DNA from: an uncultured Bacteroidales bacterium
Lineage (GTDB): Bacteria; Bacteroidota; Bacteroidia; Bacteroidales; GCA-2748055
Direction of reading: 5' to 3'
Assembly (NCBI GenBank): GCA_963764345.1
Contig: CAVXSF010000033.1
Location: 7,931-71,930 of the forward strand
DNA: 64,000 nt
The notes under the pieces were generated by a model, which saw nothing but the letters and a program-made list of their open reading frames with translations, searched no databases and was not told the origin of the DNA. Below, piece after piece: positions 61,100-64,000 of this stretch (the first letter of the stretch is position 1; each line of letters opens with the position of its first letter). The translations under genes and the position numbers were made by a program.

Positions 61100-62071
61100 A
61101 TGAAAAATGTAACATTAGTTTTAGCAGTAGCTTTATTAATAGTTTCAACAAATCTTTTTGCACAAAGGAAAACAGATATTGAAGGTAGTAAAGATTATCC
61201 TCTGGTGTCAAGATTTGAAGGTTCTGTTATCGAGTATTATAAAGATACAAAATGGGATACTTACAAATTACCCGTTTATGAAGATAACATAACACAACCA
61301 AATTATAAAAATCCTGTCACTTTAGAAGGAGAAGTTATCAGAACTCAATATTCTGTACCATCTGACAATAATCCTTCTTATGTTATGAAGAACTTCGAAA
61401 AAGCGTTTACTTCAAAGAATTACAAAATTCTTTTAGAAGGAAAACCCGGAGAAGGAATTGAAGAAGGACCGGCTGGTTTCAACGGAGATTTTTACGGTAG
61501 TCAGAAAGCTTTAAATCTTGACAAGTTCAGATATGCTTATGAACCAACCGGAGATGGCGATAAAGCAATAATTGTTGCAAAAACAAATAAAGATGGAAAG
61601 GCTATTTATATTGTAGAAGTAATAGGTGCTTTTTCTAATACAACATTAATAACTCAGGATGTAATAGAAGTTGAGGAAGCAGAAACAGGAAAGGTTACGG
61701 CTTTAGATATTAATAAAGACATAACATCAAACGGGCACATTGCTATTTACGATATTCACTTCGATACAGGGAAATCAACATTAAAAACAGAATCGGCAGA
61801 AGCATTAAAAAATATTGCAGAATTTTTAAACGGTCATCCTTCAAAGAAATTTTTAATTGTTGGGCATACTGATAATGTAGGAAATTTTGATGCTAACTTA
61901 AAACTATCAAAAGATAGAGCAGATGCTGTTTTGAATGAATTAGTGACAAATCATTCAGTAAAAGCTGAGCAATTACAAGCCTATGGAGACGGTTCTACAG
62001 CTCCTGTTGCGAGTAATTCAACTGAAACCGGAAAAGCAAAAAACAGAAGAGTTGAAATCGTAGAACTATAA
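61100..62071 (+). CDS. OmpA-family protein with N-terminal DUF4892-like domain
   Basis: GSKDYPLVSRFEGS; IHFDTGKS, GHTD..G..D.N.KLS.DRA, NRRVEIV. Confidence 0.88.
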   Translation: MKNVTLVLAVALLIVSTNLFAQRKTDIEGSKDYPLVSRFEGSVIEYYKDTKWDTYKLPVYEDNITQPNYKNPVTLEGEVIRTQYSVPSDNNPSYVMKNFEKAFTSKNYKILLEGKPGEGIEEGPAGFNGDFYGSQKALNLDKFRYAYEPTGDGDKAIIVAKTNKDGKAIYIVEVIGAFSNTTLITQDVIEVEEAETGKVTALDINKDITSNGHIAIYDIHFDTGKSTLKTESAEALKNIAEFLNGHPSKKFLIVGHTDNVGNFDANLKLSKDRADAVLNELVTNHSVKAEQLQAYGDGSTAPVASNSTETGKAKNRRVEIVEL

Positions 62072-62091
62072 TATACTACTGCCGGTCGGGT

Positions 62092-62295
62092 AGGCGTCTG
62101 ATCCCGACTAAGCGGGACCGGTACGCCTCTCCCGCCACTTCCTCCCGAAAGTTTTCGGGAGGTCATGAATACAGCGCTTTCCCGATTGAATAACCGGGAC
62201 AGGCAATTCAATTGAAGGGGTACGGTTTTATCCATCTCCGAAAACCTAACCGTTTCATATAGTCAAAGGTCAGCCTCCCGCAGAGCGGGACAGGT
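62092..62295. repeat. Cluster of four REP-like TCCCG..CGGGA hairpins
   Basis: atcccgactaagcgggac, cctcccgaaagttttcgggagg, ttcccgattgaataaccgggac, cctcccgcagagcgggac. Confidence 0.7.
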
Positions 62296-62584
62296 CGTGC
62301 AAAAATTCCCCCTTCGTTGTTAATACCCTATTCTTTTACAAATTACCTGATCAGCAGCGATTTATTTTGAAATAGATCAAAATCCAAGGATTCCAAACGG
62401 GGAACGGACCGCAACCAGATGATGATGTTCTGCCTGGGAAGCTCCATTGCCCGGGATTCGTTTGTTCGTGTGGCTGATGCCTTCGCAGATGTTACCGGTC
62501 TAAAGGGTGCTGCCCGGAGCAGTACATTAAAACTGTTGCATATACCTTCCGATAGGGAGGGATATATTCAACTGTGCAGGAGTT

Positions 62585-62866
62585 TTGACAATATTATTTT
62601 ACCAAACCACCGGGAAGGAATATTCAGCAAGCTGCATACAGAATATAGTCCATGCTGCGGTAAAAGCTGCCGGGATAAAAAAGAAGACGTCACTTCATAC
62701 CCTTCGGCTCACGTATGCCGCACACAATCGGGGAAAGGGGGTAAATTTAAGGTACATTCAAGATATGATGAGACATTCAAGCAGCAAGACGACGGAGATA
62801 TACACCCCTATAACTCAAAAAGGCTTTAATCAAATAAAAAGTCCGATGGATGACTTGGATTTGTAA
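62585..62866 (+). pseudogene. Truncated tyrosine recombinase/integrase (C-terminal ~93 aa)
   Basis: HTLR box, LRYIQDMMRHSSSKTTEIY, terminal IKSPMDDLDL; N-terminal two-thirds absent; HSFATH and LGH motifs degenerate. Confidence 0.8.
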
Positions 62867-62941
62867 AATTATTGCTATATTTATTTAACTAAACTAAACT
62901 AAAGGGGCTGAACACATATGCAAAATAAATGCAACTGTTAC

Positions 62942-62999
62942 ATATACTCCTCAAATTTGAGGAGTATATACAATGGGTGTGTTTAGCCACTCGTTGGGC
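62942..62999 (+). mobile_element. attI-like region: perfect 28-bp palindrome + GTTGGGC core site
   Basis: ATATACTCCTCAAA/TTTGAGGAGTATAT (62942-62969); GTTRRRY at 62993-62999. Confidence 0.5.
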
Positions 63000-63185
63000 G
63001 GTAATTACAAAGAGAAAACCGACACTTGGATTAAATAAAAAAAACCACGTCTTACCTATGCGAACGAAGACTATTAAGCTTTAATCGTATCTGGTGTAAC
63101 ATAGATAGTTAACGGTAATCGAAAACCTTTGAATTATAAAGCAATATGTCATGAATTCCTAAGTTAAATCTGGATTGAAACTTGA

Positions 63186-63326
63186 GAGAGGGTGTGGATA
63201 CAAATATACCGTGATTTAAACTTCGATAAATTAAATACAGATGGGCAGGAATGGGATACTGGAATCAAAGTAGACGTCATTCTGGAGATCAAAAATGGAT
63301 TGATTCATTGGAAAGCTATTAGGTAA
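63186..63326 (+). pseudogene. Decayed cassette ORF remnant
   Basis: Start-less frame ERVWIQIYRDLNFDKLNTDGQEWDTGIKVDVILEIKNGLIHWKAIR*, preceded by an in-frame stop and ending 45 bp before the attC-like site. Confidence 0.4.
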
Positions 63327-63371
63327 TTCGCAAGGCACCAATATGTACAAGGAGTTCGAATAATGAAAACG

Positions 63372-63508
63372 TTGCCGCCAACATCCGGTAAATTTCATTG
63401 CCAGGTTCGTTCCTTTATTTTGTAAATTCGTTATTACGATGAATTAATAATATTAACGAAGGCTAACGCCAGCTGGCAACGAAACTTACCGGTAACGCGT
63501 TGGGTTGC
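63372..63508 (+). mobile_element. attC-like recombination site
   Basis: TTGCCGCCAAC inverse core; arms 63384-63404 and 63473-63493 are 18/21 complementary; GTTGGGT core at 63499-63505; ~135 bp. Confidence 0.62.
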
Positions 63509-63547
63509 AATTGTACCGACAAGCCAGCACGATTAAAAGTGAGTTAA

Positions 63548-64000
63548 ATGAGTGAAAAATTTCTTCAAAAGTTTAGTTTTTATGATTATGAAAATGTTTC
63601 TATTGATTATAGTATAAAAACTAAATTGTTAGATTTGAACACTTTAGTTGATTATATAAAGATTAATCCGACTCGAGGATATAGTAAAGCTGAAAAATAT
63701 ATTGGAAAGCATCTTAATCCTTCAACAAAGAAAATTGAAACATCTGAGAGGCAACGGCCATGGACATTGTGGGTTTATAGCACAAATGGAATGGTGACGA
63801 GTAAGAGATTTGATGACCATGCAGAACACTTGATTCTAAAGGTGCAAAATGCAAAAGGACAAATAAAGGAATTTATTAATCAGCCTGACAGGTTTGAGAT
63901 AATGATACAGATTTACTTATCGGTTTATAAAAAAGAGAATTATTTTGGATTTGGGATTAAGTCTGATTTATTTGGCAAATTGATTGAGATTACGAATTTT
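63548..64000 (+). CDS. DUF4279-like hypothetical protein (runs off window end), cassette-like
   Basis: Open frame of 151 codons from ATG 63548 (MSEKFLQKF...IKINPTRGYSKAEK...RPWTLWVYST...); very AT-rich; starts 43 bp after the core site. Confidence 0.65.
   Translation, partial: MSEKFLQKFSFYDYENVSIDYSIKTKLLDLNTLVDYIKINPTRGYSKAEKYIGKHLNPSTKKIETSERQRPWTLWVYSTNGMVTSKRFDDHAEHLILKVQNAKGQIKEFINQPDRFEIMIQIYLSVYKKENYFGFGIKSDLFGKLIEITNF

Follow-up and report, generated by a model that had tools for sequence, protein, structure and literature searches.

Does the end of a 64,000-nucleotide stretch from an uncultured Bacteroidales bacterium hold a gene-cassette system of the integron type, and if so, what kind of recombinase goes with it? 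The stretch (the window, C33:7931-71930) belongs to a 5.15-Mb draft genome of 35 contigs, 95.9% complete. Contig C33 extends 1937 bases beyond the window; we read these bases as well and give positions above 64000 as window-equivalent. An earlier reading of the letters alone, hereafter the original prediction, had listed in order the C-terminus of a tyrosine integrase, a 28-bp palindrome, a GTTGGGC box, a decayed open reading frame (ORF), a long inverted repeat ending in GTTGGGT and a new ORF close behind it, and had taken them for a cassette-capture platform. All the listed features are present, far beyond chance. We consider it highly likely that the locus is the decayed platform of an integron-type gene-cassette system whose recombinase belongs to the IntI/XerA branch but is not IntI. 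The platform interpretation is supported by genomic copies of an attI-like site, by attC-type hairpins, by a boundary rule at GTT and by a linkage of recombinases and sites that runs through the phylum.

Such a system touches two premises of integron biology, namely that recombination of attC cannot do without the domain specific to IntI and that some large phyla, such as Bacteroidota, are essentially integron-free. For Bacteroidetes, the finds of IntegronFinder 2.0 were limited to In0 elements and a single complete integron in Salinibacter (PMC9024848), and a 2024 preprint (bioRxiv 10.1101/2024.07.02.601686) names Bacteroidota as one of the clades 'previously found without any integrons'. Our search of the literature on integron-like systems of Bacteroidota or Flavobacteria with a non-IntI recombinase, and on HARP domains with tyrosine recombinases, found no description.

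Hairpins, insertion site and cassette boundaries

The inverted repeat that ends in GTTGGGT was confirmed at 63376-63505 on the plus strand, with its length refined from about 135 to 130 nt. This site, attC A, opens with the R'' box CGCCAAC, pairs two 20-nt arms and closes with the R' box GTTGGGT. Reading past the window end revealed two further 130-nt sites, attC B at 64263-64392 (AACCAAC...GTTAGGC) and attC C at 64907-65036 (GCCTAAC...GTTAGCC). A simple scan for AAC...GTT plus arm complementarity found sites of the same design, 126-133 nt long, on contigs C8, C11 and C18; the strict RYYYAAC...GTTRRRY pattern combined with a fold filter returned nothing, as the outer box letters vary. We then built a covariance model, R1, from 11 aligned sites. 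It scores attC A at 92.3 bits (E 1.3e-18) and has 24 matches in the genome, so that further attC-like repeats are found both downstream of 64000 and elsewhere. At least seven sites form an array at C11:25483-36064, right after an intact integrase gene and its attI and on the same strand, and smaller arrays lie on C8, C18, C32, C6 and C31.

As expected of attC, the sites are imperfect inverted repeats with R'' and R' ends in which structure is conserved over sequence: among the 11 aligned sites, compensatory changes occur in 16 of the 18 stem pairs. At the ends the pattern nnnYAAC-A ... C-GTTR is conserved, and the YAAC...GTTR core is kept in 52-54 of 54 sites. The extrahelical bases of attC are missing; both paired arms have the same length (20/20 nt), so nothing bulges out of the stem. 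Two stem positions are fixed as A.C on the top strand and G.T on the bottom strand (8 of 11 and 10 of 11 sites), and in agreement with this, 47 of the 54 sites, which come from this and other genomes, fold better on the bottom strand (mean difference -3.3 kcal/mol, p = 2e-8). For attC A the values are -28.4 kcal/mol for the bottom and -25.2 kcal/mol for the top strand. Only 2-3 nt separate R'' from the stem. The hairpins do not belong to a curated RNA family, since scanning the locus against Rfam with E up to 1 returned nothing.

The insertion site itself is defined by copies. Directly behind the integrase remnant, at 62867-62995 on the plus strand, lies a region ending in ...TTTAGCCACTC-GTT. 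A stretch of about 107 nt that begins after the integrase stop codon and includes the palindrome recurs in six genomic copies with 90-98% identity, each behind an integrase 3' end. Aligned, the six agree up to ...CCACTCGTT / ...TTTAGCCACTCGTT and are unrelated right after GTT, where each has a different cassette. We read the region as an attI-like insertion site because this pattern, alike up to GTT and divergent after it, is what a crossover at G|TT predicts. The junction letters of the six copies are GTTGGGC, GTTGTGC, GTTGCAA, GTTGTGC, GTTGTGT and GTTAGCT. In the window the GTTGGGC box is present as predicted at 62993-62999 on the plus strand, with G at 62993 and TT at 62994-62995, and the letters of the first cassette start at 62996, right after GTT, according to both the paralogue alignment and metagenome contigs.

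The attI-like region folds strongly (z-score -6.4). Its consensus fold has 35 pairs, of which two carry a compensatory change, the sequence variation among the copies being too low for more. The palindrome is a perfect one of 28 bp at 62942-62969 (self-match 100% over 28 nt) and forms the inner hairpin of the conserved attI-like site. We considered and rejected the possibility that it marks one more attC: it neither aligns to the attC sites nor matches their model. An R''-like CTAAAC ahead of the palindrome is not kept among the copies. In other genomes a box TATAC-N4-6-GTTRRRY, resembling the 3' half of the attC sites, stands after the stop codons of recombinase homologues. In integrons, promoterless cassettes are driven by a common promoter (Pc) that lies upstream of attI. 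Inspection by eye of the conserved region upstream of attI found no convincing promoter of the Bacteroidota type (TTTG ... TAnnTTTG). The six paralogous copies give a clean definition of attI, and the window adds natural junction variants at the crossover.

In an integron the 5' end of a cassette carries the TTRRRY of its own attC, and the box at site n-1 should complement R'' of site n and not R'' of the site it stands in. We scored this relation in 52 consecutive site pairs, taken from the window's genome and from ten further loci. In 34 pairs the four variable letters behind GTT at site n-1 are perfectly complementary to R'' at site n, with about 3.4 expected. Mean complementarity is 3.25 of 4 for consecutive pairs, compared to 1.92 for pairs within the same site (10 of 76 perfect) and 1.55 for random pairs, and none of 2000 shuffles reached 3.25. 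The arrays thus carry the signature of circularly permuted cassettes. Along the window array the boundaries match at 2, 3 and 4 of 4 letters, and on C18 the junction GTTGTGC complements R'' of the first attC (GCACAAC) in every letter.

Junction variants were also seen in contigs of soil metagenomes: one joins attI straight to cassette 2 via a shared CGTT, one leaves attI for a different sequence immediately behind GTT, and one does the same at attC C. Of the words sampled from the locus, the public runs contain at most 18%, and they were used as contigs only. These contigs are short and low-depth, for which reason we take the metagenome junctions as supporting evidence only. The complementarity of consecutive pairs and the homology breaks at GTT, in paralogues as in metagenome contigs, point to a crossover at G|TT.

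The same data bear on the view that the hairpins are selfish intergenic repeats, similar to repetitive extragenic palindromes (REP) or miniature inverted-repeat transposable elements (MITE), or terminators, with no cassette mobility involved. They are indeed intergenic, palindromic and numerous, and most stand just behind stop codons. However, within an array they keep to one strand and adjoin a recombinase gene, their stems covary together with conserved YAAC and GTT ends, and they have no T-run; boundary complementarity in 34 of 52 pairs and the sharp breaks at GTT fit site-specific exchange of cassettes instead. We give this explanation hardly any credence.

Read as an integron-type platform, the locus has a layout in which the tyrosine recombinase gene is followed about 130 nt later by the attI-like end G|TT and then by co-oriented and, it appears, mostly promoterless cassettes, each closing with a ~130-nt attC-type hairpin of the form nnnYAAC-A ... 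C-GTTRnnn. We propose the following mechanism. Recombination of attC with attC would cut cassettes out as circles, recombination of attI with attC would insert them at attI, and the crossover would fall between G and TT. The recombinase encoded next to the array probably catalyses these exchanges, judging from its linkage to the sites. The likely substrate is single-stranded, namely the folded bottom strand of attC.

An IntI-related recombinase without the IntI-specific insert

The integrase C-terminus named in the original prediction is confirmed by a match of the ORF at 62585-62866 to Pfam Phage_integrase (E 2.7e-13). Searching the genome by tblastn, we found an intact paralogue of 546 aa at C11:36987-38624, with 84% amino acid identity to the window fragment, as well as other decayed 3' fragments on C11, C18 and C32. 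Comparison with the C11 DNA shows that the window copy is the intact gene minus two internal deletions. Its C-terminal remnant (62607-62866, plus strand, 94% DNA identity to C11:37243-36854) corresponds to residues 461-546 plus the stop. An N-terminal remnant that the original prediction had missed (62503-62613, plus strand, 85% identity to C11:38531-38420) corresponds by translation to residues 32-68, part of the first of the HARP-like modules described below, and is in a different frame. Also missed were 240 nt of upstream region (62264-62504, plus strand, 83% identity to C11:39253-39004), which may be a non-coding leader or the promoter region of the platform.

The deletions removed the segment with the first catalytic Arg and the Lys, so the window integrase is dead. 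The earlier claim of a dead integrase is therefore true of this locus; in the genome the intact paralogue heads another array. That paralogue could act in trans on the window array, and since the local gene is destroyed the window array is mobile only if it does.

What kind of recombinase is this? In the 546-aa paralogue, the Pfam domains Phage_int_SAM_4 and Phage_integrase occupy residues 275-531. Among NCBIfam models the integron integrase TIGR02249 comes first with 211.9 bits, below its cut-off of 265, and matches in two pieces that skip model positions 181-238. The XerA model reaches 203 bits against a cut-off of 220, XerD 161 against 330 and XerC 158 against 335. The best match among solved structures is VchIntIA (2a3v) of the canonical integrons, again in two pieces, with 19 residues in place of IntI4 residues 183-244; archaeal XerA (PDB 5hxy, 4a8e), which resolves chromosome dimers at dif, is second and aligns without a gap. 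The distance from the KGxKDR to the HxLRH motif is 65 aa in the family, compared to 107 in canonical IntI of the same phylum and 73 in Xer. The additional domain specific to IntI, an insert of about 40 aa, is thus missing.

An AlphaFold model built on an alignment of 66 sequences (mean predicted local distance difference test score, pLDDT, 80.6) agrees with this placement. A Foldseek search with the whole model returned 2a3v first and XerA next. N-terminal of the recombinase core the model has three modules of beta-beta-alpha-beta-beta-alpha fold, at residues 1-58, 101-154 and 183-241, and Pfam HARP (PF07443) matches the third (residues 198-229) with 31.3 bits against a gathering score of 25. 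We call the modules HARP-like on the strength of this Pfam match and the modelled fold; the whole-model Foldseek search matched recombinases only and returned none for the modules. Family members of about 280 aa adjoin arrays without the modules, so these are a non-essential accessory of one lineage, and any part they play in recombination is conjectural.

In a tree of 38 rows a branch with 100/99 support parts the housekeeping Xer proteins, including the genome's own, from a clade of two groups: canonical IntI, monophyletic at 100/100, and all the insert-less recombinases linked to arrays. The branching order among IntI and the insert-less groups lacks resolution in this tree. The placement in a tree and the check for the IntI insertion, both proposed with the original prediction, therefore agree on a family that groups with IntI away from Xer and has no insert. 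Being closest to IntI and XerA and lacking the insert, the family is IntI-like in sequence yet fails the feature by which IntI is defined. The protein collection has 212 full-length homologues, and these bear the names XerD, tyrosine recombinase or site-specific integrase only.

The additional domain (around patch III, the I2 helix) is treated as the defining feature of IntI in PMC9668308, citing Messier & Roy 2001. Smyshlyaev et al. 2021 (PMC8138268) found that the insert is not fully conserved in 'integron-like' simple tyrosine recombinases, yet consider it essential for integron function, and they report no link between insert-less members of the subgroup and cassette arrays. There is a precedent for recombination of folded DNA by a recombinase of the Xer type. 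XerCD integrates the folded single-stranded DNA of the CTX phage at dif, an insert-less recombinase exchanging one strand pair on a hairpin (PMC3442271), so hairpin recombination can in principle do without the insert. That system differs in that the phage hijacks a housekeeping recombinase and that there are no cassette arrays, no attI platform and no attC family.

These comparisons also bear on the idea that the locus belongs to a system like the Xer/dif modules, with double-stranded dif-like sites as in the pdif modules of Acinetobacter and a hairpin that is incidental. The gap-free alignment to XerA and the lack of the IntI insert would fit. The tree, however, places the family with canonical IntI across the 100/99 branch from housekeeping Xer, and the Xer models score far under their cut-offs. 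The units are covarying, bottom-biased hairpins of about 130 nt instead of 28-bp sites of alternating orientation, and the cassettes share with integrons their circular permutation at G|TT. We judge such a system very unlikely and retain the reading of an integron-type platform.

Several observations concern the fate of the integrase copies. The window's genome has a near-identical public relative, an uncultured Bacteroidales metagenome-assembled genome (MAG). In the related MAG the integrase gene orthologous to the intact C11 gene (L039:9870-10583; own region C11:36855-38755) has the internal deletion of the window copy, from C11 38420 to 37243 with CCGG microhomology at the junction. The common deletion suggests that the copies share an ancestor or that gene conversion took place between platforms. 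At C11:12000-12700 and C32:167558-167891 a tandem-repeat tract, translating as repeated PPYVSSCALCGSSL or HMRSHKEEEG units, lies directly upstream of two truncated integrase copies. That the integrase gene is itself a cassette, which would explain its six copies, was rejected, as no attC lies upstream of any copy. A second, divergent tyrosine recombinase of 308 aa, with 32% identity and a long branch in the tree (C11:22276-23091, plus strand; L016:16198-17124), is encoded where the C11 array has its far end, on the strand opposite to it. The related MAG has the same 2.5-kb segment with this gene within an array, flanked by two attC sites (L038:2760-5293), and this recombinase gene may travel as cassette cargo.

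Recombinases and arrays across the phylum

If the family acts on cassettes, its members should adjoin arrays in other genomes as well. We collected 23 homologue loci, from Bacteroidales, Lentimicrobiaceae, Saprospiraceae, Ekhidna, Aquimarina, Tenacibaculum and others. All 19 distinct R1 matches at these loci share the strand of the recombinase gene and are downstream of it. In each of the 12 homologue regions that were fetched, R1 sites (1 to >20) are confined to one strand; most hold arrays and two have a single detected site. Intact homologues of the integrase, on which the original prediction had staked its case, are therefore followed by co-oriented arrays in many Bacteroidota.

A genome of the same order carries a large array (L040, G243:C1:526000-545900), with >20 detected sites in 20 kb and matches spanning about 43 kb. 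Its sites are mostly of a 75-nt short form with 60% G+C, reminiscent of the uniform repeats of Vibrio superintegrons.

The original prediction had stressed that the integrase is co-oriented with the cassettes. This layout is real and is not the unusual part. Integrons with an 'inverted integrase' of the Treponema denticola type are known, in which the integrase is transcribed toward the array and attI follows its 3' end, and these carry true IntI proteins with the additional domain. The window resembles them in integrase orientation. The family itself shows two layouts, the co-oriented one and a divergent one as in classical integrons, and has no insert in either; recombinases of the divergent layout have 280-306 aa and no N-terminal modules. 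The unusual part is a recombinase without the IntI-specific insert.

To estimate how widely recombinase and sites occur together, we scanned 301 genomes sampled evenly from the phylum, calling homologues at E <=1e-40 and R1 sites at E <=1e-5. A recombinase homologue is present in 112 genomes and R1 sites in 110, with 69 genomes having both (odds ratio 5.8, p = 8e-12, a statistic uncorrected for phylogeny). Canonical IntI, as a full-length match to TIGR02249 with 300-497 bits, was found in 92 of the 301 genomes, nearly all of other classes; one of the 92 is labelled as the class of the window's genome.

These counts allow us to weigh the suggestion that the locus is an ordinary cluster of attC sites without integron-integrases (CALIN). 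Its attC sites would then be canonical, the canonical IntI would have been lost or left unassembled, and the insert-less recombinase would be a bystander. Canonical integrons have the same R boxes (YAAC and GTTR) and the same cassette logic, canonical IntI genes do exist in other classes of the phylum, and a draft in 35 contigs at 95.9% completeness could have missed one. However, a TIGR02249 scan of the window's genome gave no match over the cut-off, that is, no canonical IntI, and the sample has one same-class genome with IntI compared to 36 genomes of the same order or class with sites. Every locus examined has its array directly after, or divergent beside, an insert-less recombinase, and attI is conserved jointly with the 3' end of the insert-less gene in six copies. 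Where a genome has both recombinase types, canonical IntI is mostly far from the R1 sites. We regard this possibility as unlikely.

Some points nevertheless weigh against a platform served by its own insert-less recombinase. Co-occurrence is imperfect, with 41 genomes having attC only and 43 the recombinase only, and in genomes of other classes canonical IntI could be acting on similar sites. At the window's own boundary from attI to attC A, 2 of 4 variable letters match. The metagenome joints come from short, low-depth contigs of 151-240 nt, with 27 nt only on one side, and may stem from another platform or strain because there are six attI copies. The ~280-aa members that adjoin arrays without HARP-like modules argue against any general need for these modules.

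The platform resembles canonical integrons such as the Vibrio cholerae superintegron in its tyrosine recombinase adjoining attI, its co-oriented and apparently mostly promoterless cassettes with hairpin ends of the RYYYAAC/GTTRRRY type, its G|TT crossover with permuted cassette boundaries, its bottom-strand folding bias and its probable toxin-antitoxin cassettes. It differs in several respects. The family lacks the insert (I2 region) and falls under the integron-integrase cut-off, and in the window's lineage three HARP-like modules precede its core. The two arms of attC are symmetric, with G.T/A.C positions in place of bulged bases and a 2-3 nt spacer between R'' and stem, attI is a conserved hairpin unlike canonical attI, and several platforms occur in one genome.

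Joining these results, we lean towards the hypothesis that Bacteroidota have a widespread integron class of their own, with insert-less IntI-related recombinases that standard finders miss. Its cassettes would be bounded by hairpins of about 130 nt, sometimes 75 nt, and its recombinases would either never have had the I2 insert or have lost it. Strand and structure might be recognized through the fixed G.T wobbles and the asymmetric spacer instead of extrahelical bases, and in one lineage HARP-type modules that bind DNA by its structure may help. Standard integron finders would miss both recombinase and sites, and the phylum would consequently be reported as almost integron-free.

The locus and its relatives indicate integron-type capture in about one third of the sampled genomes of the phylum, by a recombinase without the IntI domain. 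If true, cassette-based gene exchange extends to a major phylum of the environment and the gut, and integron-finding software has a blind spot. The family would also be a natural experiment on how a folded single-stranded site is recognized without the I2 helix.

Cassettes of the array and flanking sequence

Cassette 0 (62996-63505, plus strand), bounded by the attI box and attC A, has no gene: its 510 bases contain no ORF of 60 aa or more, in line with the decayed unit of the original prediction. Cassette 1 starts at 63506, fills the window to 64000 on the plus strand and ends at window-equivalent 64392. It encodes the new ORF noticed behind the repeat, a DUF4279 protein (63548-64021) beginning 43 nt after attC A, followed by a DUF6980 ORF (64030-64251) and attC B. 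Cassette 2 encodes a lipoprotein-like protein of 164 aa with no match in Pfam, and cassette 3 a short lipoprotein-like ORF interrupted by IS1595. The ORFs of cassettes 1 to 3 start 43, 8 and 9 nt behind the preceding attC.

As predicted, the array continues beyond the window, through cassettes 1-3 and two attC sites past 64000 up to an insertion sequence at the contig end. The IS1595-family transposase gene (zinc ribbon and DDE domain) is inserted in the fourth cassette, cassette 3, at L001:4238-4936, window-equivalent 65238-65936. Since C33 ends inside this gene, the array probably goes on in another contig, possibly C8, which begins with five attC sites.

The attI copies on C18 and C6 are followed by the same two-gene first cassette (C18:1418-2216; C6:24657-25452). 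By eye it appears to encode a toxin-antitoxin pair similar to HigB/HigA, with a helix-turn-helix (HTH) antitoxin. HigB/HTH toxin-antitoxin units are common in large chromosomal integrons.

Between an OmpA-family gene (61100-62071) and the homology upstream of the integrase lies a G+C-rich non-coding stretch of about 190 nt (62075-62263). It holds a perfect 10-bp stem (62141-62162), has no match in Rfam and has no further copy in the genome. Next to it, at the left edge of the platform, a 66-nt segment (62264-62329) also occurs at C11:39253, where it sits upstream of the intact integrase, and at C11:17534 and C34:5304; this segment may be the left end of the platform or a separate small repeat.

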